A stretch of DNA of 64,000 bases from Eledone cirrhosa (lineage: Eukaryota). Location of the stretch: the NCBI GenBank assembly GCA_964016885.1, contig OZ024741.1, positions 126,170,001-126,234,000 of the forward strand, written 5' to 3'. The notes under the pieces were generated by a model. That model was not told the DNA's origin, ran no database searches, and worked only from the letters and a program-made list of their open reading frames with translations. How positions within the stretch are numbered: position 1 is the stretch's first letter; every line of letters begins with the position of its first letter. The translations under genes were made by a program, and so were the position numbers. Below are positions 3,611-55,248 of the stretch, piece by piece.

Positions 3611-3676
3611 TATTTTGTCTGAGGAAGGCATAGCATATTGTTAATATGATATCCCTGAAATATATATAATGAAATA
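3611..3676 (+). ncRNA. Type I hammerhead ribozyme (TATATA stem III, family A)
   Basis: tattttgt-CTGAGGA-stem II-GAAA-tatata-TA-atgaaata; stem I pairs with G.U wobbles; same family as 7925-8190. Confidence 0.75.
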
Positions 3677-8190: not shown

Positions 8191-8366
8191 AACCTTCTCC
8201 AAAATCTGTTGAGTGCTTTTATATCAGTTATAAAATATTTACTCGTTGTAACCCTACAATTTTAAATAAAACTTTTGCATATATATATATATATATATAT
8301 TAGAAAGTGAGGTTTTTTTTACAAAATGAAAAATAACCGAGGTGTCCTACACGAGTGAAAGTATAA

Positions 8367-8658
8367 AGAAAAAGAGATGAAATCGAAAATGCAACTGGAG
8401 TCTTATTTAAAAAAAAAATATATATATATTTATTTGGTTCCTTTACCGGTTTCGCAGTTCTTCTGCTTTTCAAAAGGTGAGTTGAGATGGAGGGTCTGTG
8501 GTTTTTCTCACATGTGAGAAAAACCACAGACCCTCCATCTCAACTCACCTTTTGAAAAGCAGAAGAACTGCGAAACCGGTAAAGGAACCAAATAAATATA
8601 TATATTTAAAAAAAAAAAATAAGACTCCAGTTGCATTTTCGATTTCATCTCTTCTTCT
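8367..8658. repeat. Fold-back palindrome centred at 8512/8513 carrying U3:A8 hammerheads (8440-8477 -, 8548-8585 +)
   Basis: cctt-TTGAAAA-gcag aagaa ctgc-GAAA-ccgg-TA-aagg; flanked by (TA)n. Confidence 0.8.
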
Positions 8659-10048
8659 TTATATATATATATATATATATATGAGAAAGAGAAAGTGAGA
8701 GAGTATGGGGTTAACCGAACAAGGATGTGTGGACCACATTATGGTCTGTTCGTTGTGAAGCAGATAAAAAGATATATATATATTTATATATACACATATA
8801 TACGTGTGCTGTGTTGACGAAATTCGGTACTGGGGTCAATATGATCGACTAAATTCCATAGAAGGCGATGCACCTGTATGACTGCAGTCTAATGACTGAA
8901 ACCTGTAAGCGAATCAAATATTAAAACAACTTGTCCCTATAGTTAATCTAGTGTTGTTTTATACCGTTCTCATTTCATTTCTTCTGTATTCTAGTCTCGT
9001 TTCTTTTTCTTCTTTTTTATCATTTTATTCTTTTACTTGTTTCTGTTAGCTCACGTAAACGCAGCATTTCTAGGTTCAATCCCACCGCATGTCATCTTGA
9101 GCAAGTGTCATTTACAATACATTCGGGTTTAGTCATGCCTCGTCAATGAAATTAGGTTGATGGAAACAGTTTGAAAGCACAAGCGACAGATCGTAGCCGT
9201 GTCTCACACTGTGTCACACTGAATCCCCCTGAGAATTACCTTAAGGGGTTACACGTGACTGTTGAATATTAGACTGGTACTTTATCGACCTTGAAAGAAT
9301 GAAAGGTTGGGTATGATGTCAGTACGCAGAGAACCGGAGTGAATAATGGAAAGCATTCTATATGACATTCTAACGATTCTACCAATTTACTCTACACACA
9401 CACCTTTCTCTTTTCAACGTTATGCTGTTCCACATCTTTTTCTTCCTTTGCCGTTCTTTATGGTTCATACCATGAGTGGACATGAACATTTAGCGTTCTG
9501 GGCTTGCCCTAGAATGTGTGTCACCTTCTTCTAGACATGCATCCTCTTTTCCAAAATAAAATAATTTTAATTTGACAAAACCTACTTTTTAACACTTCTT
9601 ACTCTGAGCATGCGAAGAAAATTAGTTAGCCTGCATTTTCCATTATACAGTCCACACTCACCCACGCTAACTTCTGTGATAGCTCATAACACTAGATGAC
9701 CCTTTCCACTACTTTAGATATTTCAGCAACGCTGCAACGTGACAAATATATTTAGCGTTTATTTATTCATTGCCGGAAATTATTATATATTTAAGGCTCT
9801 TAACTGGGGTGCCATAAGCGGTGGTTATCTAGTTGGGTTTAATAGTAGCGCTAGCCTTCGCTGTGAGGCAAGGATGATCAGTAATTTATTTATTGGTCGT
9901 AGGGAATAATTATATATTTAAGTTAGTTAGAGTTTTTATTATATAAAAAAAAAAAATGTAACCATCTAAGTTCAGTAATGCACCACTCTGAAGTCTATGT
10001 CATAGGCGGCAGCCTATTTGAGCTTAATGGCAGCGCCAGACCTGTACG

Positions 10049-15466: not shown

Positions 15467-15544
15467 GTTATTCCAGGTTGAATCGGAGGTAACCACAGTA
15501 AGTAAGGTACTCAATACATACCAGAGTATAAAAGTTTTAACATA

Positions 15545-15643
15545 GATGAGATTCTACAGGACTAGAACTGTTTCATTATTTAGAAATCATCAGAGATTCC
15601 TGATAATTTCTAAAGAATGAAACAGTTCTAGTCCTGTAGAATC

Positions 15644-15649
<6 letters not shown>
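15545..15649. ncRNA. Small fold-back with a hammerhead (15593-15645 +, core CTGATAA; minus arm keeps CTGATGA)
   Basis: gagattc-CTGATAA-tttct aa agaat-GAAA-cag..ctg-TA-gaatctc. The upstream part (15466-15530) recurs at 56521-56589. Confidence 0.7.
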
Positions 15650-25281: not shown

Positions 25282-27218
25282 ATCAGAAGTTACGGATCCA
25301 TATTTACACACATTACATCATCATTGGTGAATTGGCAGTATCGATAGCAGTCACTTACACATAACTCTGCCCATGAAGTTATGTGTAAGTGACTGACATT
25401 CTATAGCCACGTGTACCTTTAACGTACTTCTCAGGGAGATTCAGCGGTACAAAGGTATTTTTAAAATACAGGTACAGTCGATCAGACGGGTTCTAAACAC
25501 TTTCCATCTACCAAATCTCACTAACAAAGCATGGGTCGACTCATGGCTATGGTAAATGATACTTGCTCAAGATGCCGTGACTGACATTCCATAGACACGT
25601 GTACCATTAACATAATTATCAGGGAGATTAAGCATCATACAGCGTGTGACAAGGCTGACCCTATGAATTACAGATACAGTTAATCTGACGGACCTTCAAA
25701 TAGATTGCATCTTCAAAATTTCACTCACTAGGTATGGGTCAACCCGAGGTTACGTATGGCAAATTACACATGCCCCCAAATGGCACACAGTGGGATTGAA
25801 CCCAGTCCTTAATGATTGCAAAGTGAACTTCTTAATCATTCAGCCACCACTGAATACCCATTGAAGTTTGAACAACTTCGAAAGTTGTTCAACAATTCGC
25901 CTTTCAATTACAACAATTCGCCTTTCTTGTATTATGTTCATTCATTCTTTGGAGATCTGTTTAACTTATTTACTAATGAACATTCTCAAATAATCAACAA
26001 ATATTTTGATATTACTGACGTTTGATGAAGATTTCAACAATTCTCTGGTGTACAATTCTCGTTATACTTCGACCATTACATAAGTTAGTCTGTTGTGGCA
26101 AGTTATTAGCATTATTTCCGTTGGATTCTGTTTGCCATTGTGTGAAACCTCTGATGACATTTGTAAAGTATGCATTAATATCTGCAATACTGCATATCTG
26201 TAGCTGCTGGCTTATATCTTGATAATTTCATGAAATTAGAAAAGCCATTCATCAAAGGCTGTGGTATTATTTTTAGTGTAAAGGCGTATGAACTAGGTTA
26301 GAATGGCTGGCTTACGATCATAAGATCGTGTGCTTGATTCTAGGCGACACAGTGAGTCCTTGAGCAAGACAGTTTATTTCACATTGAGCCAGTCTACTCT
26401 GCTTGAAAAAAATGAGTTGTACTTGTAATTTAGGTCCAGGCTTGGTGTCATGACGAATCTTCTTGACAATTATTTTACATTCTTAATAGATGACGAAATA
26501 TATTTGTAATTCAAAGGTCCAGCTTTGTCACACTGTCACGCTGAATCTCCTTGAGAATTATGTTATGTATACACATGCCAGTGGAATGCTCAGGTACTTA
26601 CACGCCAATTTAACGAGCAGGCTGTTCTGTTGATCGAAAAATTGGAACACTTATCGTTGAAATCAATGGAGGTCAATTCTATCGCTCTATCCTGTTCTAT
26701 CAACGCGATGTCTACTACAGCAAAGCTCACTTCTTCTTCTTCTTCTTCTTCTTTTCTTCTTCTTCTTCTTCTTCTTCTTCTTCTTCTTCCATTTGGAATA
26801 AAACTCTAACTGTCACTCTTCTATTCTTTTACTGGTTTCAAACATTAGACTGCAGTCATTCTAGGGCACCACATTGAAGGCTTTTAGTCGATCATGTCGG
26901 CCCCAAAATATATATTTCAAAATCTGGTACTTATTTTAACCATCTCTTTTATTGAACCGCTAAGTTACAGGATATGAACGTTAACACGCATACATATATA
27001 TACGAAGGGCCTCAACACAATTTCCGTATACCAAATTTTACTCACCAAGCTTTGTTTAACCTGAGTTTATATTAGAAGACACTTGTTCGAGGTGACACGT
27101 CAGACTATAGAGGAAGGCAGTTGTCCGAAGTTCCACGTGGTTGCGAAGCGAACTCCTTACCCACATAGCCTAGCCAGGCCTTGCCTGTAGACATTTCTAA
27201 CTAAATTTAGCGTTTGTT

Positions 27219-27605
27219 GGTGGATTGGCAGTATAGGTAGCGGGTCGGACGTCATGCTTTGACGCATAGAATTACGGCCCTTTCCATTCTGAGTTCAAAT
27301 CCCGCCGAGGTCAACTTTGCCTTTTATCCTTACCGGGTGGATAAAATAAAATAGCAGTAATGTACTGGATAATTACTGGCCTTGTGCCAACAGTAGAAAC
27401 AATTATTTCTTTTTGGTGGATTGGCAGTATCGGTAGAGGGTCGGACGCCATGCTTTGCAGCAAAGAGTTACGGCCCTTTATTATCCGAGGTCAAATCCCG
27501 CCGAGGTTAACTTTGCTTTTTATCCTTACGGGGTCGATAAAATAAAGTACCAGTAATACACTGGAATAATTGATGGCCTTGTGCCAAAAGTAGAAACAAT
27601 TATTT
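27219..27605 (+). mobile_element. Two head-to-tail SINE family 1 copies
   Basis: 27219-27410 and 27415-27605, each with A/B boxes and the conserved body. Confidence 0.85.
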
Positions 27606-29496
27606 CTTTTTGTTTCGAACACAAATTAGAACAAATCAATCGAATTTATTTATTTTTCTTTTGAGTATTTTATTTTACTAATCTGTTTATATAAAACCAA
27701 AACACACTATTAGAGGGAACAAAAAGACAGAAAAAAAAGGGAAATGAAAAGAAAAAAAGAAAAAAAAAAGAATCAAGCAACGGAAGAAAGGGAAAGGGGT
27801 GGGACTGACACTAAATCCCTGTGTGAGCGATGCCGCAGTCGCACCCCGCTGAAAAAAATACAAAAGCGTTACCACAGAGAATGGCCAGAGGCACACGCTG
27901 CAACAACCAGCTTACCCCACGAAGACCCCCCGCCCCTCTTATCTTTCTTTTAGTTTGCAGTAATTGTCACGTGTTCATATGTTTGGAGGTTTCGTGTACA
28001 TACAATATTTCGATCTTTTAAAAGACCTCCGAATGAAACAAATTGTTAATGAATGAACTAATGAGTAATTGGCAATACGAATCAACCTTTAAGGAATTAT
28101 TCCCTAATGTATTGCTATACCATTGTTTATTTAGGCTTAGAATTGCTTCACCCGGATAATTCAAAGAATGGACAAGAGGCAGTAGAAGGAAAGCAGAATA
28201 TCTAGAGAAGTTAATTGCAAGCTTAACTCAATCTGCTGTTTAGTTTTTCTTGGCATTGAGTAGAACAATGCTGTATTAATCACCTTATCTTCCCATTTGA
28301 ATTATTAGCTAACATAAAATAGCTCTTACAACAATTCGTGATAGGCAGCATACACTTCAATAGTTTCTCCTTGTTAGAGGAATACCTAACATGAGAGATA
28401 TTCACTTGATAGCTTCTTTGTTAATTCATTAAGTCACCAAACGTTTGTTTATTCGTTAGTCGTCTGTGCAAACAGAAGCAGATATATTTAAAGTATGTTA
28501 AAAGTACTCAGAAGATAAGGTGATGACACCATCGACATTGTAACGGCATGGCTACTTCAAATGAGTAGTTTAAACTACTTCACAGTCTGCTGCCACCAGA
28601 TGTGTGTGTGTGTTGGACCTCCGTCAGTTTCATCGGGACAGCTTATTCGTGAAATTAACGCCGAACTCAACTTTGTCTTTCATCGTCTTTCTCTTTCGAC
28701 GTCGATAAATAGCCTACCAGTTCAGTATTGGGGTTGATTCTTTCTCTCTTTTTCAGCATTCTCTCCCTCTCCCTTCTCTCTATCTATTTCTTACCCCTTC
28801 TCTCTATCTCATCCATTCTTTCTAGAATAAAACGTCTGTATTCAGACCTGGAGAGAGATGGACTCCACCAGGTTGAAATATCCCAGACATGCCGTATATC
28901 CCTACGGTGTTCCTACGTCCTCACCAGGAGTTAAAAGCCCATAGCATAGCAAAGATTTATTAATGAAAATTAAAACTCAGTCACCATGGCTTATTCTCGA
29001 TAAAAATTCTACAGGAAATTAATGTTCCATCCAGATATCAAATATCTGGACACCGGAAGTAAGTCGACTTCTTATATCTCGTTAGTTTCAAAGTTAAATC
29101 AATCTTCTGTTATTTCACAACGACATTTTGGCAATATTTTCTGTGGAGCATAGAGGTGATAGTTGTGGATGGCCGAATGGTTAAGTTCACTTTGTAGGCA
29201 TTAGGTCTCGGGTTCGATCCTAAATTGTGACATCATGGACACGTATCATTTACCATAGACCCAGATTGACCACCACCCAAATTCCCTCACCTGGTATAGG
29301 TCGACCTAAGGCTATGGTAAATGATACTTGTCCAAGATGCTATGGTGTGGGATCAAACGCAAGACCTAATGATTTCGACCATGGGGGTCCACTATCTGTG
29401 GTTGTGACAATAAGATTAACAAAGTTTCTGTTTACAAAGTTAACATGAAATTTCAAAATTTATTCAAGCCAAAAATTGTGTATGAAATGTATTCTT

Positions 29497-32831: not shown

Positions 32832-33199
32832 TATATAATTTCCCTTTAAGGATTACCATATATTATTAAACTGTATAAATCATGTTAAATATACTTTAGC
32901 AAGCTATTCGGACAGAACAAAATTATTTACGAAGAATGCAAACAAAGGAAGATAACTCGTTCATCATATGTGAACATTTAAAACATTTAAGTATTTTGAA
33001 AACCAAAAGATATTTCAAACCACAAATCAAGAAATTTCTAGTTAAACAATGACCTTTCTAAATCCAAACATAGGATACTGAGACACATCATGAGATTAAT
33101 TTACTAGATAAAAACGACAAACAATTTTTACCGGTAAGGCAAAACGTTATATATATAATTTTTTAAGAATTATTAATAGTCAATATTTTTTCAAAATTT

Positions 33200-34846
33200 G
33201 TATAATGCTTGAAAAGTTCTTCCAGACTTATGTTGACAGCTACTAAATAACTCATTTTTCTTATTAATTAAATTACCATAATTTGTAATTATCAATAGTC
33301 TCTAAATTGCAAAGATTGCAATTTGGTGAATTGGATGCATTTCGGTAGGAATCAGTATACTTTAACTTACTCCAAAAAATTGAGTATTTGATATTTTTTT
33401 CCTTCAAAGACCATATTAATTGTGAGAGTGATGTAGACATTTTTTTATCTGGATTAGAAAAAGAATGTTTATGATTATAAAAGCGAAACTTAAACTTAGA
33501 TGAAGTGGCACCAATGTAGTCATATGTATTATTATTATTATTCTTAATAGTACATTTATACACCAGATTCTTGTGAAGGCAGTTATTTTGTAAAGGGCAT
33601 TCTGATTTCCTTCTACAGTTACAATTCATTTCGATGTTATTTCTATAACCTAAACTATTCGTATTATTATTATTATTGGGTGGTGGTTTGGCAGTATCGG
33701 TAGAGGGTCGGACAACATGCTTTGTAGCACAGAGTTACGCCCCTTTCTGATCTGAGTTCAAATCCTGCCGAGGTTAACTTTGTCTTCATCCTTACGAGGT
33801 CGATAAAATAAAGTACCAGTAATGCACTGGGTAATTGCTGGCCTTGTGCCAGTAGAAACAATTATTATTATTATTATTTAGAGGTGTTCTACTATTATTT
33901 GTATTTAAACTATTATTATTGTTATTCCAATTAACTAATGTATTATTATTATTATTGTTATTATCGCTAATTATATGCTGGTTCAAATTAAGATTTTTAC
34001 TATTTATTTTTGCTATATTTTGAGCAATATTCATAGTTGTTGAATAAGAGAGTTTAACTGTGTGTCTATTGATGATAGAGTAAAACTTATCTGATCTAGG
34101 GAAACATTTATCCAAGGCTTTAAAAAATAAATGTGCTAAAGGTGTTTTAATAGCTAAAGATGCTGGCGGAGCATACCAAATTATAGATCTAGTCCTTATT
34201 TTTCCCCCCAATTTATTCCTCAAGTTGTTGTTTTTACAGTCAATTCCATTATTGTTATTATGAATACTGAGATTATAATTAATATTATTTTCTTCTACAT
34301 ACTCAATATTATTTTTATATCCTGCTTTATGTAAGGCTTCATTATAATATACTGCTTTACTATTAAATATGGATCTATTAGCAGATAGATCCATATTTGT
34401 TGTTGGATATTCGTTGTTGGACACTGTTGACTATTGCATTTTTAACACTTTTAGGATGATTAGAGTAAAAACTAACATAATTTAAGTTTCATTGAGTTTA
34501 TGGAAGGGGTAATAGAAGCCTGAATTCAAATTAAGAGTTAAATCTAAAGAATTAACTATTTTATTGTTATTTTCTACTTCTAATTTCAGGTCATAATTTT
34601 TAAAGAATTCTATAATTACTTTCTTTACACTATTTAATTCGCTATTATTATGTCTATCTACAGTAAGTAATATGTCGTCTCCATATAAACCACCGGTAAT
34701 CTCCGGCAGTTTTCTATTTATCATATTAAGGATGAAAATTCCCACAAGATCGGTAACTTGCGCCGAATCAGACGAGCCCATAGTAATGTCAACATTTTTC
34801 TGCCTATCTGATCTAGTCCAAAAATCATTATTAAAATCAATCAAGT
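33200..34846 (-). pseudogene. 5'-truncated, frameshifted PLE (same lineage as 177-2513)
   Basis: MGSSDSAQVTDLVG, YGDD, IIWYAPP, CNCRRKSECPLQNNCL, LVY..YIG; interrupted by a SINE. Confidence 0.9.
33678..33866 (+). mobile_element. SINE family 1 inserted in the poly-Asn (AAT)n tract of the PLE
   Basis: (TTA)n on both sides; the PLE frame continues across the insertion. Confidence 0.88.
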
Positions 34847-34958
34847 AGAATTATTTATATATATATATATATATAAAGAATTCTACTTGATTGATTTTAA
34901 TAATGATTTATATATATTTATTGATATGATTATATATGATTTATATATATTTATATAT

Positions 34959-36374
34959 AAATTGGAATAAATGCTCTGAAATAGCGATATATATGTGAAT
35001 ATAGACATAGAATATTCGAAAATATTCTGTATGTTTATAATAAACATTTTGAAGACCTAATCGCTATAGAATAGAATACGTCACGTATTACAATTAGATT
35101 CTCGATAAAAGCAAGGGAAGTAATCTACGCGTTTCATTCTTGTTAGAAATCTTCAGGACTACATATCCAGTGCTTTTATCGAGAATGACACAGCTAGAGA
35201 CTTATAGAATACTTAGCTGTGTACAGGAACTGGTTTGAAAGAGCGGTTGCCGGTCCGGCAGAAATTAGAAATTGGAATAAATGCTCTGAAATAGCGATAT
35301 ATATGTGAATATAGACATAGAATATTCGAAAATATTCTGTATGTTTATAATAAACATTTTGAAGACCTAATCGCTATAGAATAGAATACGTCATACAGAA
35401 TATAAACATACAGAATATTTTCGAATATTCTATGTCTATATTCACATATATATCGCTATTTCAGAGCATTTATTCCAATTTCTAATTTCTGCCGGACCGG
35501 CAACCGCTCTTTCAAACCAGTTCCTGTACACAGCTAAGTATTCTATAAGTCTCTAGCTGTGTCATTCTCGATAAAAGCACTGGATATGTAGTCCTGAAGA
35601 TTTCTAACAAGAATGAAACGCGTAGATTACTTCCCTTGCTTTTATCGAGAATCTAATTGTAATACGTGACGTATTCTATTCTATAGCGATTAGGTCTTCA
35701 AAATGTTTATTATAAACATACAGAATATTTTCGAATATTCTATGTCTATATTCACATATATATCGCTATTTCAGAGCATTTATTCCAATTTCTAATTTCT
35801 GCCGGACCGGCAACCGCTCTTTCAAACCAGTTCCTGTACACAGCTAAGTATTCTATAAGTCTCTAGCTGTGTCATTCTCGATAAAAGCACTGGATATGTA
35901 GTCCTGAAGATTTCTAACAAGAATGAAACGCGTAGATTACTTCCCTTGCTTTTATCGAGAATCTAATTGTAATACGTGACGTATTCTATTCTATAGCGAT
36001 TAGGTCTTCAAAATGTTTATTATAAACATACAGAATATTTTCGAATATTCTATGTCTATATTCACATATATATCGCTATTTCAGAGCATTTATTCCAATT
36101 TCTAATTTCTGCCGGACCGGCAACCGCTCTTTCAAACCAGTTCCTGTACACAGCTAAGTATTCTATAAGTCTCTAGCTGTGTCATTCTCGATAAAAGCAC
36201 TGGATATGTAGTCCTGAAGATTTCTAACAAGAATGAAACGCGTAGATTACTTCCCTTGCTTTTATCGAGAATCTAATTGTAATACGTGACGTATTCTATT
36301 CTATAGCGATTAGGTCTTCAAAATGTTTATTATAAACATACAGAATATTTTCGAATATTCTATGTCTATATTCA
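34959..36374. mobile_element. Retrozyme-like array: 310-bp monomer, about 1.4 inverted copies (34959-35393) plus about 3.1 tandem copies (35401-36374)
   Basis: Copies appear identical. HHR gtagtc-CTGAAGA-tttct aaca agaat-GAAA-cgcg-TA-gattac at 35588, 35898, 36208 (+) and 35120-35162 (-); stem I extended by attctcgataaaagca/tgcttttatcgagaat. Confidence 0.92.
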
Positions 36375-36417
36375 TATTTATATATATTTATTATAATGAT
36401 ATATATATATATATATA

Positions 36418-38822: not shown

Positions 38823-39929
38823 CGAAGGAAATGTGGTAAGGAACCAGGTGGACCATAACGCACCAAAGTACTCAATACTTAGGGTAGTAGAGTAGGTAAT
38901 AGGAACGAGTAGGACCCCGACGGCTGAGCTCAGGCCGTTTCGACGGCTAATTCTGGACAAATTACCACTCTATTACCCACTCTACAACCCTAAGTATTGA
39001 GTACTTTGGTGCGTTATGGTCCACCTGGTTCCTTACCACATTTCCTTCGTTATCTAGCTCCTATTCCCGTAGTAGAGCACTTTCCGACCCTACCACGCCG
39101 TATTCAGACTTTTCCGCTAAGCTCAAGTTCTTTCACCCGCACCATGCGAAAACACAACATCGACTTCTCTACCAAGAACATCCCAGTTCCACCGAAAAAA
39201 CTTTACCTTTGGATGCTCACGCAAAAAATCGATCTATTTGCGAAAAGACTTAGATGGAGAACTTTTTTCTACGACAGATATTGCGACAATCAGGACTTCG
39301 GTACCAAGGAGAGATTCGGATCTAATACCTACAAATCTCCCCCTCCGAACCTTATGCTCTCACCCTTCGAGAATGACCTTTTCCAACTGGTCAAGAACAT
39401 TAAATTCAAACCCAGACGCAACCGATTCCTACAAAAACTCCGTAGCAACTTAACAGATTATGATAACACCAATGACATCATGGTGCACTCGGATAAAACT
39501 GGTAACCTCTACTTTGTCAACCCCGACAGATACCACACACTGATCAGGAGCAGCCTAAACTCCACCTATAAAAAGGCTAACCACTCATGCATCGAGGACA
39601 TAAATCGAGATGGACAACAAATTACCTCCAGCCTCGGGGTCGCCGACCGCACGGAACTCCTACACCCACGGACACCCTACTTCACACTGAAGGACCACAA
39701 ATCCGATTTCGACCGTAAACCTTCTATCAGGCTTATAAACCCAACGAAGTCCGACATAGGGAGAATCAGCAAAGAAATCCTAGACCACGTTATACCAAAA
39801 GTTAAGCAACACGCCAGACTTAGCCTATGGGTCAACACACAGGAAGTAATCTCATGGTTCAGCAATATAAAAGAGTCCAGAATTAGCCGTCGAACGGCCT
39901 GAGCTCAGCCGTCGGGGTCCTACTCGTTC

Positions 39930-40009: not shown

Positions 40010-40317
40010 TGGCAACCATTCACAGTGTGGCTCAATGACGAATTAATTAATTAAATCAACAATAAGAGCAATATATAAGAAAGTAAGTCCTTAGAATCAT
40101 TAGATAAAATATATACACTATTTCTTCTCCCAATCAGCATAATCAACCATACAAAAAATCATTTAAACGAGGCTATAAGTTTAAAATATACCTACAAAGA
40201 AATAATAGATAAATAAATGATAGCTTTTTATCCGCGATTCACAGCCACAGAAAATTTACCTAGTATTTCTGATAATTTTTAGTTATAACGTCCGTGATAT
40301 TTGCTCTGATCTGAACA

Positions 40318-40531
40318 AACATCACGGACGCTCTATCTCAAAATTATTTTTGAAAAGCATTAGAAATGCGCAACCGGTAAAACTTAAAACCAAAACTGAA
40401 TACTAACCAATACAATTACTAATTCTCACTTATTCCTAATTAAACTATTTTTCACTGAACAATTTGTCAGCATTTTCTATTCCGTTTACCAATATATAAT
40501 AACTTGTGTGTTACACCTCTATTCTTTTAAA

Positions 40532-40893: not shown

Positions 40894-41288
40894 TTAAAAG
40901 AATAGAGGTGTAACACACGAGTTATGATACATTGGTAAACGGAAAAGAAAATGCTGACAAATTGTTGACAGTGGAAAATACTTTATTAGGAATAAGCGAA
41001 AATTAGTAATAGTATTGGTTAGTATTCAGTTTTGGTTTTAAGTTTTACCGGTTGCGCATTTCTAATGCTTTTCAAAAATAATTTTGAGATAGAGCGTCCG
41101 TGATGTTTGCTCTAATCTGTGATGTTTGCTCTATCTCAAAATTATTTTTGAAAAGCATTAGAAATGCGCAACCGGTAAAACTTGAAACCAAATCTGAATA
41201 CTAACCAATACTATTACTAATTTTCACTTATTCCTAATTAAACTATTTTTCACTGTGAACAATTTGTCAGCATTTTCTTTTCCGTTTA

Positions 41289-44530: not shown

Positions 44531-46651
<2,121 letters not shown>

Positions 46652-49578
46652 CTAAGACGGGTAAAATCCCGAGATCCATGGACGAGTTTTCTCCAGCGGT
46701 CTCTGTCCCTCATTATCGCTGCCATGTCCTGTGTCTCCAACATACTAGTGTCTGTCCTTAGGGCATCAACATACGTTAACCTTGGTCTTCCTCTTCCAAT
46801 GTGTCCATGTAGGGGCTCCCACAGGAGCACTGAGTGCAATGTCAACTCTGGATGTCGGTGAGCATGTCCAGCTAACCTCAGTCTCCTCTGTGTCACTTTT
46901 GAGCTGACTTTTGGGAGGCTCCCATACAGCTCTGAGTTTTTCATCCTCAGTGTATACTGATTAATGTTCAGAGCCATCATCATCATTCTCGTGTAGCACC
47001 CATCTACCATCTAAGTGAGTTTCTTGGACAGTGTCTCAGACCCGTACAGCAGCACAGACTCCACTACAGCAATGAAGAGGCGGATTTTCAGGTCTTTACG
47101 AAGGTCCGACTTCCACACCGATCTCAAGCTGTGGCACGCCACCCAGACCTTGCTCTTCCTCTCAACCACATCATCTTCCGTATTCCCAATGTTTGCTCTC
47201 AAAAACAGGAAGTCCTCAACCAATTATAGCGGCTTCCGGCCTACATTAGTAATCCCCTCTGGCTTCTCAACATTCTCAACCATATATTTTGTTTTAGTCT
47301 CATTTATTCTGAGCCCCACACTCATCGACACAGTCTCTACCTCCCGCATCAAATCCTCTGCCTCCTTCACTGTATTTGTCACCAAAACTATGTCGTCGGC
47401 AAATTCAGCATCCGATACCTTTTTCGCCTTAACTCTCCTGCTCTGAGCCGGTGCTACAGTAAAACCAGAGTCCTGGTGTTTCTCCAGTGCAAGGCGCATA
47501 CAAGAGTCCACAACGATGATAAAAAGGTAGGGAGCCACTCTATCTCCCTGGAGCACTCCATCCAGTATCTTAAAGAACTCTTTCATCCCATCAGGTGTAA
47601 TGACTTGGGCTTTGCTGTTGATGTAGAGCAGTGATATCAGGTCCACTATCATCTTGGGGATTCCATAAGCCTGTAAGATCTTCATCAGGCAGTGACGGTC
47701 CACAGAATCAAAGGCCTTCCCAAAGTCAATGAAAACCATGACCGCAGCTCCTTCTCCAGTGCCTGGTTACAAAACCCCAAGATGATATCATCAAAATCAC
47801 ACCTCTTCATCACCTCTGATGCCACTCCATATCTCCATGAACCTTGCCCTCCTTGATCTTCTTGGCTTTCTGAAGCTCCTCTCTGGTGAAGGGCTCTGTC
47901 TCAATATCCAGTTCTTCAAACAGCCTCCTGATCTCCCCAGTGCTCTGGGTTGTGGAGGGCGGCTCTCCTAGTAGGGTCCTAAAATGGTCTAGCCATTTCC
48001 TCTTCCTAGCCTCGGGCCCTGTTCCCTGGATCTGACTCGAACACCTTCTCTTCCTCCCTGTGATCCGCTCTCTCCACACTTCTGATCTCTATCCGTGCCT
48101 CCTATCTGACCTCAGTGTAAGTGGTACAGAATTCTTCCCTCATCACCTCCACAGTCTCCTTCTTCTCCTCCGTAGGATCAGCATAGAATTGGTCCTTGGC
48201 AGCTTTCAGGTATTCTCTGGCTGCACACACTTTTGGATCTGCAGAGCTGACGTGCTTCCTTTTGTTCTTTCTCCTCGGCACCAGGGTCTCACTTGCTTCC
48301 GCCACTGCATTGGTGAAGTGCCCGTACCTCCTCATCACACTCTCCTCAGTCCATCCAATTTCTCTCCCCTCTGTTTCTCCACACAGAGCACTTAACCTGT
48401 TCCTTACTTCCACTGTGAACCTCTCATGTAGCTTGTCATCGTCCTTGAAAGCTCCCCAGTCATAGATTGCTCTCCGGGGCTAAGACTTGCTCTTTCTTAA
48501 GCTCACCCGGACCTCACTCATAACAAGCCGGTGGTCACTACCCAGTGTACTGAAATAGTTGTATGGTTCTGTGTTCAGAATACTATTCCGCCACTTTTTC
48601 CTCACCAGAATGAAATCAATCTGGGACTTGGACAGGTGCCTATCTGAGATGTAGGTCCACATCTTCCCCGGATTCTTCCTAAACCTTACGTTGGTCGCTA
48701 TCAAGTTCGCCTCCAACAGGGTGTCACTCAGTAGTCTTCCATTTCGGTTGGTGTTGTTATGGAAGTACCAGCAAGGATCTTCACTGCCCTCCTTACTCAG
48801 ATGTGCATTGAAGTCCCCCAAAACAAGCAGGATGTTGTGGGATTGTGTGGTGTTGATAGCTCTACACACCTCCTCATAGAACTCTTCCGCAGGTTTCCAT
48901 TGAAGGTCACCCTCAACACTCGCGGGGAGATATGTATTATTTCCCTCACCAATAGACTGGTTTTTGTACTGAAAATAAAACCCACTCCTCCCACTGCATT
49001 ATGGGTATTGTACCTCACTGCCGATGTGGTGATGAGCTGGCTCATCTTCCCAATCATCACACTCCTCACGGGCTCATCATGTAGGATCCTATGTTCTTGG
49101 ATCGCAAGTATCTGTATACCACTCTCCTCGAACAGATGTCCCAACTCCTCTCTCTTCTCCAGCGTCCGAATAGTCCTCACATTCAAAGTGCCCATGTTGA
49201 TGGCTCTTCTGCAGGACAAAACTGCATTCTTTATATCCATCAGCTGATCCATCATCCACTGACCCTCCATGTGGCTCTAAGCCAGCAGAGCCATAACGAC
49301 CAGACTGCTTCTTGACAGTGTAATTGGGGGCTCTAACCCTAGTGCTGTTAGATAGACTCTCCATATTTCTTTTCAATGGGTGACAATACCTTACCGGCAC
49401 AACTCGAATAAGGTAGTTATTTAACCCATAAATGGGGCCCTAACAGGTACCACTACTCTGGGCCAGAGCAGACCTGGGAGTTATGACAACTAAGGGGTAA
49501 CTCCACATTCCTCACAGCTCCTGAACTCCCGAACTGGAGCCTTGCCACTGGATGTAGTTTAATGTCATACCCAGGACA
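46652..49578 (-). mobile_element. Near-full-length decayed RTE-clade LINE (5' UTR, AP endonuclease, RT)
   Basis: GTLNVRT, ILAIQEHR, GDFNAH, SDHRLV, FIDFGKAFDSV, GVLQGD, FADD, LRLAGH; frameshifts and a deletion near 47745; (TA)-rich tracts at both ends. Confidence 0.93.
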
Positions 49579-49947: not shown

Positions 49948-50284
49948 AAATGAAAATCTGAAGGCAAGGTAAAATTCCAATCAATTAATCACGACACATG
50001 TTTCAATAAGAGATAGATCGATTGTGAAGTCATGATCGATTATAACTGTCTCATCAGGTGAAAATGAATTGTCTTCAAATTCTTGATATGAGGGAGAAAA
50101 AAAATAACGATGTTCTCTCACAGAATTCATTCCCTCATATTTTTTTTTCTCCCTCATATCAAGAATTTGAAGGCAATTCATTTTCATCTGATGAGATCAG
50201 TGATAATCGATCATGCTCTTATTGGAACATGCATCGTGATTAATTGATTGGAATTTTACCTTGCCTTCAGATTTTCATTTTGAT
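49943..50284. repeat. Imperfect fold-back; hammerhead 49989-50061 (-) with a decayed partner at 50184-50239 (+)
   Basis: tcac-CTGATGA-long stem II-GAAA-catgtg-TC-gtga; the partner has GGAA and a deletion. Confidence 0.7.
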
Positions 50285-50424: not shown

Positions 50425-50522
<98 letters not shown>

Positions 50523-50940
50523 TGGGATTCGAAACCGATCGGTAAAGGTAACTATAGTAGGTAAAGTCAATTTTTTAAAATTTATTTTGAAACTTTTTCA
50601 TTATTTGCTAAACCTTGTTTATATTTGTTCTGGCTCGTTAATTTATTAACCTGCCATTGAACCACACTGGCATTTGGTTGGACAATACATGCGTCCCTTA
50701 GCGCCTTGTGCGTGAAGGAACACATATCCTATTATTATTATATATATATATATATATAGATATATATATAGAATTAATAAATCTGTACTCCAATGTTACT
50801 AGGTAGTCACATTGGATGGAGTCAACCGACGTCGGAGATTGCTCAACGTATAATAAAATATAATAAAATATGCTTTAAAATCCGGAGAAAATATGAAGAA
50901 AAAGTTTATGAAACGGAAATGCGGGTATAAAGAATTTACT

Positions 50941-51059: not shown

Positions 51060-51513
51060 GTGAATTTGTCACTACTTTAAAACAATAGCTTACGGTCTTC
51101 AAAATGCTTTTAATTAAGCATAAAGTGTATTGTAAAATACGTTATATATACATCCATATATATATTGCTACTTCAGAGCTCCAATTCTAATTTTTAATTT
51201 CTACCTGACCAACAATCGCTCTGCATAATCAGCTCCTGATTATTTACTAGATTTCTATAAGAATATTACATCAATGATCTCAGTAGACAGGTAGGGTAGT
51301 TGGCCTTGATAAGCTTCAACCAAAGCGAAACAAGTCTTGTCGGCTTATCTCCCCTGTTTGCTGAGATCAAAGTGAGTGAATTTGTCACTACTTTAAAACA
51401 ATAGCTTACGGTCTTCAAAATGCTTTTAATTAAGCATAAAGTGTATTGCAAAATACATTATATATACATCCATATATATATTGATATTTCAGAGCTCCAA
51501 TTCTAATTTTTAA
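51060..51513 (+). mobile_element. 316-bp monomer, about 1.4 tandem copies, with a U3:A8 hammerhead (51302-51345)
   Basis: ggcc-TTGATAA-gctt caacca aagc-GAAA-caagtcttg-TC-ggct; stem I extended by gatctcagtagacagg/cctgtttgctgagatc. Confidence 0.82.
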
Positions 51514-51530
51514 TATATATATATATATAT

Positions 51531-52623
51531 ATATTAGAAAGATCGAGTATCGAAAAATCGGCGCACGAGTTCACGATAAACAATATTCGAAATGAGCGGC
51601 AGAGGGCTCAATAATTCAATTGAATCAGAGCTATAACTATCGTTAAAATACCGTCACACATAGAACAAGTCTACAATCAACCATACGATAAAAAATCGAT
51701 AATAGAAGATTCGGGACAAACAGATAAAAAATATCAATAAAACAATACATCAATAATTTAAATGAATGTAAAATCATACCCGGACCCACTAGAAAGGTGT
51801 TAAATCTAGCTTCTTGGGTTTCTGTAAATCCTTAGACTGTACTCTATCAGCTCACATATAAATATAAAAGCCTACTAGAGCAAGAAGAATGGAGTTTACT
51901 TCATCAACGAGCTTTTTTCCTAGCGGATAAGGGGCTAACCACCAGTGAAAAACGCACATGGCATTCGACAAGGGAGATAACCTCTACATCCGCGAAAACT
52001 ATTCGAGGAAATGTGGAAATACACATATCGAATAAGAGTGCTCAATAGACATGTTAAAATAAAACAAAAGCTATTCATCACTCAATAGAATCGACAAAAA
52101 ATGAGCAACAAAATTAACTGGTGGATAGCTATGTCAAGAGCTAAAAATATTAGAAAGATCGAGTATCGAAAAATCGGCGCACGAGTTCACGATAAACAAT
52201 ATTCGAAATGAGCGGCAGAGGGCTCAATAATTCAATTGAATCAGAGCTATAACTATCGTTAAAATACCGTCACACATAGAACAAGTCTACAATCAACCAT
52301 ACGATAAAAAATCGATAATAGAAGATTCGGGACAAACAGATAAAAAATATCAATAAAACAATACATCAATAATTTAAATGAATGTAAAATCATACCCGGA
52401 CCCACTAGAAAGGTGTTAAATCTAGCTTCTTGGGTTTCTGTAAATCCTTAGACTGTACTCTATCAGCTCACATATAAATATAAAAGCCTACTAGAGCAAG
52501 AGGAATGGAGTTTACTTCATCAACGAGCTTTTTTCCTAGCGGATAAGGGGCTAACCACCAGTGAAAAACGCACATGGCATTCGACAAGGGAGATAACCTC
52601 TACATCCGCGAAAACTATTCGAG
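51531..52623 (-). mobile_element. 616-bp monomer, about 1.8 near-identical tandem copies, with a candidate U3.G8 hammerhead (51778-51912, 52394-52528)
   Basis: gctcg-TTGATGA-agtaaa..tttaca-GAAA-ccca..tggg-TC-cgggt; flanked by (TA)-rich tracts. Confidence 0.7.
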
Positions 52624-53324: not shown

Positions 53325-55193
53325 ATAAATTGAAACAAAATGAAAACGAAATTTCATTTCTCACTCTTAGTATGGCACTTACTTAAATGTAAGTATGCAT
53401 GTATACGTACATACAAATATGTATAAAGACGTACAGTAGCATGCACATATATATATATATATACATATATATATACATATGCATACAGGTACACATACAT
53501 ATATGCACGTATCAGTTTAGCGGCGCTAACGTCGCTTTGTTCGTTTGTAAACAAACTGAACAGCCTGAATTTATGCCATACGGTGTTAAGGCAACCACGT
53601 CACCTTTTTGTTCAACACTGACACAGGAACGATGTACTAGTTTCAAGCTTGTTAGCTATCATCAGCACCGTTTACCCATCTGCCAGATAGTTGAACGTTC
53701 GAAAGTATATACTTTCCTTATGAAAATTAACGGCTGAGCAGCCTAATTTGCATATTGAGTGAGTTAAATCGGTCAGGCATACCGAAAACGATAAATTGAA
53801 ACAAAATGAAAACGAAATTTCATTTCTCACTCTTAGTATGGCACTTACTTAAATGTAAGTATGCATGTATACGTACATACATATATGTATACAGACGTAC
53901 AGTAGCATGCACATATATATATATATATACATATATATATACATATGCATACAGGTACACATCTGGCAGATGGGTAAACGGTGCTGATGATAGCTAACAA
54001 GCTTGAAACTAGTACATCGTTCCTGTGTCAGTGTTGAACAAAAAGGTGACGTGGTTGCCTTAACACCGTATGGCATAAATTCAGGCTGTTCAGTTTGTTT
54101 ACAAACGAACAAAGCGACGTTAGCGCCGCTAAACTGATACGTGCATATATGTATGTGTACCTGTATGCATATGTATATATATATGTATATATATATATAT
54201 ATGTGCATGCTACTGTACGTCTGTATACATATATGTATGTACGTATACATGCATACTTACATTTAAGTAAGTGCCATACTAAGAGTGAGAAATGAAATTT
54301 CGTTTTCATTTTGTTTCAATTTATCGTTTTCGGTATGCCTGACCGATTTAACTCACTCAATATGCAAATTAGGCTGCTCAGCCGTTAATTTTCATAAGGA
54401 AAGTATATACTTTCGAACGTTCAACTATCTGGCAGATGGGTAAACGGTGCTGATGATAGCTAACAAGCTTGAAACTAGTACATCGTTCCTGTGTCAGTGT
54501 TGAACAAAAAGGTGACGTGGTTGCCTTAACACCGTATGGCATAAATTCAGGCTGTTCAGTTTGTTTACAAACGAACAAAGCGACGTTAGCGCCGCTAAAC
54601 TGATACGTGCATATATGTATGTGTACCTGTATGCATATGTATATATATATGTATATATATATATATATGTGCATGCTACTGTACGTCTGTATACATATAT
54701 GTATGTACGTATACATGCATACTTACATTTAAGTAAGTGCCATACTAAGAGTGAGAAATGAAATTTCGTTTTCATTTTGTTTCAATTTATCGTTTTCGGT
54801 ATGCCTGACCGATTTAACTCACTCAATATGCAAATTAGGCTGCTCAGCCGTTAATTTTCATAAGGAAAGTATATACTTTCGAACGTTCAACTATCTGGCA
54901 GATGGGTAAACGGTGCTGATGATAGCTAACAAGCTTGAAACTAGTACATCGTTCCTGTGTCAGTGTTGAACAAAAAGGTGACGTGGTTGCCTTAACACCG
55001 TATGGCATAAATTCAGGCTGTTCAGTTTGTTTACAAACGAACAAAGCGACGTTAGCGCCGCTAAACTGATACGTGCATATATGTATGTGTACCTGTATGC
55101 ATATGTATATATATATGTATATATATATATATATGTGCATGCTACTGTACGTCTGTATACATATATGTATGTACGTATACATGCATACTTACA
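53325..55193. mobile_element. Retrozyme-like array: 466-bp monomer, about 1.4 inverted copies (53325-53960) plus about 2.6 tandem copies (53961-55193)
   Basis: HHR aacggtg-CTGATGA-tagct aaca agctt-GAAA-ctag-TA-catcgtt at 53977, 54443, 54909 (+) and 53628-53672 (-). Confidence 0.92.
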
Positions 55194-55248
55194 TATATAT
55201 ATACATATATGTATGTACGTATACATGCATACTTACATATATATATAC

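Follow-up and report, generated by a model that had tools for sequence, protein, structure and literature searches.

Non-LTR retrozymes are tandemly repeated units of 150-450 bp that carry type I hammerhead ribozymes and are expressed as circles, and Penelope elements have been proposed as their helpers (PMC7229834). Retrozymes have also been argued to be non-autonomous Penelope derivatives; in Xenopus they are homologous to pseudo-LTRs, and one of nine predicted retrozyme dimers was cleaved in vitro (10.64898/2026.07.22.740005). Penelope-like insertions are described as containing partial tandems, an inverted truncated copy and a tail of 30-40 bp, with microsatellites as targets (10.1101/2021.04.23.441226). 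According to a 2020 review, the repeats lack any conserved motif from which the mobilising enzyme could be recognised (PMC7761336).

Natural U3:A8 covariation has been reported in several hammerheads by a study that also reports earlier in vitro activity (PMC3088659), and about 1,300 U3-A8 minimal motifs have been described in the Penelope elements of Schistosoma mansoni (PMC4209133); two of the three supplementary files of the latter study contain no mention of cephalopods or of U3-A8. In a squid genome, 235 Rfam hammerhead matches have been counted (PMC6962438). The literature searched, which covered few subscription papers, yielded no description of a retrozyme unit with U3:A8 or of octopus hammerheads.

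Here we describe a 316-bp non-coding repeat with a U3:A8 hammerhead from the octopus Eledone cirrhosa. In our judgement it is quite likely to be a non-autonomous non-LTR retrozyme that Penelope-like enzymes copy into (TA)n. All positions refer to the window, the whole 64,000-nt stretch of DNA that was analysed.

The 316-bp unit and its hammerhead

The retrozyme-like insertion occupies positions 51060-51513 on the plus strand, 454 bp that amount to 1.44 copies of a 316-bp unit, and its 3' end enters a (TA)n target at 51514-51534. A block of 144 nt (51060-51203) recurs at 51376-51519 with a period of 316; between the two partial copies there are 4 differences in 138 positions (97% identity), and homology to the unit has its left limit at 51060. 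A 316-bp tandem unit with a type I hammerhead falls within the size range of non-LTR retrozymes, and the GC content of the insertion, 34%, is below the 50% by which retrozymes are recognised. The insertion contains no ORF, its longest stop-to-stop frame being 63 codons and its longest Met-started frame 28, and it shows no terminal repeats beyond the tandem overlap; neither an inverted copy nor a target duplication of at least 6 nt was found, and the right end lies inside (TA)n. Within the tandem, unit end and unit start are joined directly with no intervening ORF, and the unit lacks the RT and GIY-YIG ORF between pseudo-LTRs that marks an autonomous Penelope-like element. The frame at 51836-52045, the sole adjacent frame examined, gave no Pfam match. 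Outside the ribozyme, the unit folds weakly (z -1.8).

The type I hammerhead domain (51275-51369, plus strand) is framed by an extended and a proximal stem I. The core strand, U3-U4-G5-A6-U7-A8-A9, lies at 51306-51312, with U3 (51306) and A8 (51311) replacing C3 and G8; the core is otherwise canonical (U4-G5-A6, A9, G12-A13-A14, A15.1-U16.1, H17), and the 3-8 Watson-Crick pair is U-A. It is followed at 51313-51326 by stem II (4 bp, 51313-51316 with 51323-51326) and its 6-nt loop 2, and at 51327-51341 by GAAA (51327-51330), helix III (51330-51340) and the GUC site (51339-51341), with the cut predicted after C51341. Stem I comprises a proximal part of 4 bp (51302-51305 with 51342-51345), an irregular stretch and then a 17-bp extension (51275-51291 with 51353-51369). 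Helix III is a near-palindrome of 4 bp with a 3-nt loop; alone it gives no fold (0.0 kcal/mol), and the duplex that it could form between two copies was computed at -10.1 kcal/mol. With three helices of 4, 4 and 4 bp plus the extension, and with helix I open, the motif has the type I layout. These features bear out the preliminary description, which had claimed a U3:A8 hammerhead in a 316-bp tandem monomer, with a GUC site, paired stems II and III and a long extended stem I, in about 1.4 direct copies ending at (TA)n.

A strict U3:A8 type I descriptor matched the window 3 times, whereas 100 dinucleotide shuffles gave 0.04 matches on average and never more than 1. The fold of the 106-nt domain had a z of -6.45. 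Rfam gave no match at gathering level across the whole window. Relaxing the threshold yielded 7 matches, the best of them to Hammerhead_HH9 (RF02275, E 5.5e-4), whose gathering score of 52 places the motif, at 25.3 bits, outside that family. Loop 2 resembles that of HH9 and of other families in the window; with the majority allele at 51321, its central AACA is identical to that of the 310-bp and 466-bp families described below. The motif at 51306-51341 is a real U3:A8 type I hammerhead motif, with predicted self-cleavage.

A relaxed descriptor picked out 11 loci in the window, with 20 distinct type I cores between them: 16 were C3:G8, three U3:A8 and one C3:A8 (15600). The U3:A8 cores are those at 8473 and 8552, which belong to one inverted insertion, and that at 51306. 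At 3 of 20 cores and 2 of 11 loci, U3:A8 is therefore a real minority in the window. The preliminary description had put the pair forward as a rare covariant that two families in one window suggested to be common in this genome, which overstates the case; the pair is rare but had already been published (PMC3088659), about 1,300 times over in S. mansoni (PMC4209133).

The window is AT-rich and microsatellite-rich and holds many retroelement pieces. The U3:A8 inverted pair at 8362-8663 (8473 on the minus strand, 8552 on the plus) has relatives at 40290-40381 and 41044-41193 (69-74%), which keep U3:A8 and carry GCAA in place of GAAA. The mismatched C3:A8 hammerhead (15544-15649) has a long helix III and a stem II like that of the 310-bp family. 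It was considered as an evolutionary intermediate and rejected: the inverted copy of this motif has C3:G8, which suggests one recent substitution. A TA-repeat helix III and a long stem II characterise the C3:G8 hammerheads at 3619, 8025/8090, 15311/15330, 31750, 36782 and 55995; several of them form inverted pairs, and they are likely Penelope pseudo-LTR motifs. A further C3:G8 hammerhead (45598-45763), whose stem II is very long, has an 86% partial copy, of the 3' half only, at 50522-50624, 0.5 kb left of the 316-bp insertion.

Other neighbours include a decayed LINE on the minus strand (46650-49400) with Pfam matches to RT (E 5.5e-21) and endonuclease, and a 56-nt inverted repeat at 50049-50196, 96% complementary, with its halves 36 nt apart and set within longer inverted arms. 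Directly past (TA)n, the stretch 51526-52623 holds 1.8 copies, almost identical, of a 616-bp unit, which has only broken frames and in which a hammerhead was not found; on its minus strand the last 7 letters before (TA)n are those of the element at 8300. Two tandem SINE-like units of 196 bp, 87% alike, occupy 27217-27612 and may resemble octopus SINEs.

Kinship with a 310-bp family, and the insertion ends

The 310-bp family (34956-36383) comprises 3.2 direct copies at 35401-36383, 99% alike, and an inverted copy at 34956-35393. Its C3:G8 hammerheads, at 35156 (minus strand), 35594, 35904 and 36214, have a palindromic helix III. The array adjoins a decayed relative, on the minus strand (33194-34844), of the frame at 180-2513. 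A 466-bp array at 53325-55197 holds 2.6 identical direct copies and an inverted copy, with four C3:G8 hammerheads, in which helix III is palindromic and stem II has a U-U pair at its base.

A block at 51084-51265 (plus strand), which includes the position of the 3' terminus, is common to the 316-bp unit and the 310-bp family. The two units align at 74% over 145 bp (E 1e-19), their score of 106 comparing with at most 34 in 500 shuffles, and sub-blocks outside the TA run scored 55 and 32 against shuffle maxima of 31 and 24. Because of this homology with a C3:G8 family, the 316-bp unit is not a free-standing family. The preliminary description had presented it as a separate one, a claim that stands towards the 8473/8552 family but gives way towards the 310-bp family. 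Kinship with the 8473/8552 family, and likewise with the 466-bp unit, was tried and rejected, the best alignment in each case being the TA run only.

Similarity between the two ribozyme domains themselves was not significant (score 12, shuffle mean 15.8), and common descent of the ribozymes therefore rests on how they are placed and built: in each unit 45 nt, with no gap, separate the core from the last shared word, the core strands are 14 nt apart in both, and the extended stem I is similar. Compared at this level, the sequences make a core swap between C3:G8 and U3:A8 within one lineage likely. The dissimilar domains would also fit a history in which the two units share the flanking block only and the U3:A8 ribozyme is a separately acquired module, in which case they would form no natural swap pair; we consider this unlikely in view of the identical ungapped 45-nt distance, the 14-nt spacing of the core strands and the similar extended stem I. 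More tentatively, and at somewhat less than even probability, the core-swap reading can be extended to a retrozyme superfamily in which a two-step core swap separated a C3:G8 from a U3:A8 lineage while a conserved block and a fixed 3' end were retained; that end would be the point at which a Penelope enzyme targeting (TA)n starts to copy.

No more than about 4 nt separate the 3' end of the 316-bp insertion from the position at which the inverted 310-bp copy ends (34956), and both enter TA repeats. The direct end of the 310-bp array stops about 37 nt short of the inverted end, which leaves a tail of ~37 nt. The 466-bp array is laid out like the 310-bp array; its overhang is longer, and its last hexamer ahead of (AT)n is similar. 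Together, the shared 3' ends and the structure of the 310-bp array lend inferential support to a Penelope enzyme having made the copies by target priming, and by analogy with published insertions the 316-bp unit is likely to be a passenger of Penelope-type retrotransposons.

A candidate helper element is represented by an uninterrupted frame of 778 codons on the minus strand (180-2513), with RT-like and GIY-YIG-like parts. From its motifs we take this frame to be Penelope-like. Its nearest clusters, at 0.96-0.98, are mostly eukaryotic, and several of them contain GIY-YIG or RT families; Pfam gave no match for 12 of the 15 window frames, this one among them. Relatives of the frame lie at 33194-34844 and 39171-39878. 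The 316-bp insertion gave no match to any Penelope flank or to the surroundings of any Penelope-like frame in the window.

A different account of the termination at (TA)n would make the 316-bp unit a pseudo-LTR of an autonomous Penelope-like element, a truncated remnant that does not propagate itself as a short unit. Penelope pseudo-LTRs do have type I hammerheads, U3:A8 ones included (PMC4209133), and the homology of Xenopus retrozymes to pseudo-LTRs (10.64898/2026.07.22.740005) points the same way. However, the end of the 316-bp unit meets its start with no ORF between, the homologous 310-bp family forms a 3.2-copy array, the 4-bp helix II and HH9-like loop 2 are not of the minimal Penelope type, and nothing beside the Penelope-like frames of the window matches the unit, all of which renders a pseudo-LTR origin of this kind rather improbable.

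Variation among other copies and predicted folding

Words of the stretch were present in 11 of 16 sequencing runs (8 studies), none of which was recorded as RNA. Four runs were compared at 80% likeness, with small-share entries left out. One of them, X1, which gave 2 contigs with 4 differences over 261 nt, is possibly the source sample and was left out of the support. Other copies were represented by 25 contigs in X2, 1027 contigs in X3 and 2657 reads in X14, and the many variant contigs and reads in these three runs indicate a multi-copy family; X14 is reduced-representation DNA, and its depth therefore gives no copy number.

Forty of the 63 substitutions were listed, and among these, 14 entries at 11 positions fell within 51275-51369. 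Seven of the changed positions are paired, with pairing kept at all seven, four are unpaired, and none is among the 13 core positions. Both partners change at 51276/51368 (G-C to A-U) and at 51333/51337 (A-U to U-A, each with a summed depth of 7585 and 4 contigs in X3), where linkage on one molecule is inferred from the matching depths and the copies, being related, are not independent. One-sided changes that keep the pairing turn A-U into G-U at 51282 and G-U into A-U at 51286 and 51302. Random placement equalled the observed pattern in 3 of 200,000 cases, or 85 of 200,000 with transition bias, and the zero count of core variants was not significant by itself (P = 0.18). Of eight insertions, four enlarge loop III, two lie where stem I is irregular, and two, at low frequency, are in the extended stem. 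In more divergent contigs, two loose ends still carry the U3:A8 core. A back-joint from 51445 to 51172 in two X2 contigs is consistent with tandem units.

Fold-compatible changes, with the core untouched among the listed substitutions, argue for selection on the hammerhead fold, and on this comparison of sequences the fold in the 316-bp family is probably under selection. Conservation of the fold in other copies, on which the preliminary description had made its proposal depend, is thus seen in the differences listed from X2, X3 and X14 (40 of 63). Metagenome scans with a first pattern gave 0 matches and with a second pattern 5; the latter were set aside as chance, since they cover 19-21 nt only and the rest of the unit is absent.

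Fold energies, which leave out tertiary contacts and Mg2+, place the active fold of the 51306 copy 6.6 kcal/mol above its minimum-energy fold, in which helix III pairs with the U3 strand and C17 with G51302. Ensemble probabilities in this copy are 0.017 for proximal stem I and about 0 for stem III. This gap narrows to 3.9 when 51302 carries the majority allele, present in most X14 reads (114 of 188 and 113 of 176), and to 1.3 when the helix III swap is added. The 51306 copy is thus predicted by the model to misfold. With one hammerhead, the insertion at 51060-51513 is a monomer-class copy. Because its ribozyme is single, it lacks the two consecutive units with complete hammerheads by which a retrozyme is called active (Li et al. 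2026), and by the monomer route the locus would undergo one cut and release no unit-length RNA of its own. The locus is probably a passive daughter copy.

The predicted misfolding and the Rfam score under threshold might instead mark a satellite-like relic whose U3:A8 ribozyme no longer cleaves, the compatible changes stemming from earlier activity or reflecting a long hairpin only; few predicted retrozymes, after all, cleave in vitro (10.64898/2026.07.22.740005). A relic has only a slim probability, since compatible changes occur also in helix III and proximal stem I, beyond the hairpin, U3:A8 ribozymes have been reported active in vitro (PMC3088659, citing earlier work), and the two partial copies are still 97% identical. 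That the motif is a chance match in an AT-rich repeat, as its short consensus and the lack of an Rfam match at gathering level might suggest, is scarcely credible against the shuffle null (3 against a mean of 0.04), the fold z of -6.45, the fold-preserving variation among other copies and the hammerhead that the homologous 310-bp family has in the same register.

Proposed propagation and comparison with known systems

If the 316-bp unit is a non-autonomous retrozyme, as we favour, its tandem copies would be transcribed, as inferred from published retrozymes, and each hammerhead would cut after GUC (C51341), either as a monomer or through a helix III formed by two copies. A host ligase would then circularise the unit-length RNA. 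A Penelope-type reverse transcriptase, primed at nicked (TA)n, would start at the defined 3' end and continue round the circle past unit length, giving the 1.4 units. Within such a cycle, U3:A8 may be a compensatory swap that preserves the 3-8 pair.

The U3:A8 covariant alone is confirmatory, being known in nature and in animal retroelements. With a U3:A8 family homologous to a C3:G8 one, retrozyme counts made with standard descriptors may well be too low, and the 316-bp and 310-bp units offer a natural pair for probing the effect of the 3-8 pair on rate and misfolding. The shared 3' terminus, the inverted copy and the tail are relevant to the identity of the enzyme that mobilises retrozymes in animals. 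Should the core-swap reading be true, U3:A8 retrozymes would be a class missed by CUGANGA-based censuses, the two lineages would be a natural experiment on core-pair tuning, and the ends would be a structural footprint of Penelope mobilisation, for which the published support consists of co-occurrence and homology.

Among described ribozymes, Hammerhead_HH9 shares with the 316-bp ribozyme the type I layout, stem II, loop 2 and the GUC site, and its full model could be aligned; the 316-bp ribozyme differs in U3:A8 and in a shorter proximal stem I. The 310-bp array is like Penelope-like insertions (10.1101/2021.04.23.441226) in its partial tandem, inverted truncated copy, tail and TA-rich target, whereas the 316-bp insertion differs from them in being non-coding and without an inverted part. 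The Cercyon Penelope hammerheads of S. mansoni (PMC4209133) likewise place U3-A8 in a repeated animal element. Cercyon motifs, however, are minimal and mostly single, with a long helix II, in contrast to the 4-bp helix II, real helix III and short tandem unit found here. From metazoan non-LTR retrozymes the 316-bp unit, known here from DNA alone, differs in its U3:A8 core and the 17-bp extension of stem I. In common with them (PMC7229834; 10.64898/2026.07.22.740005) it has a tandem unit with a type I hammerhead, a GC content below 50%, no ORF, copies both monomeric and multimeric, and co-occurrence with Penelope-like elements.
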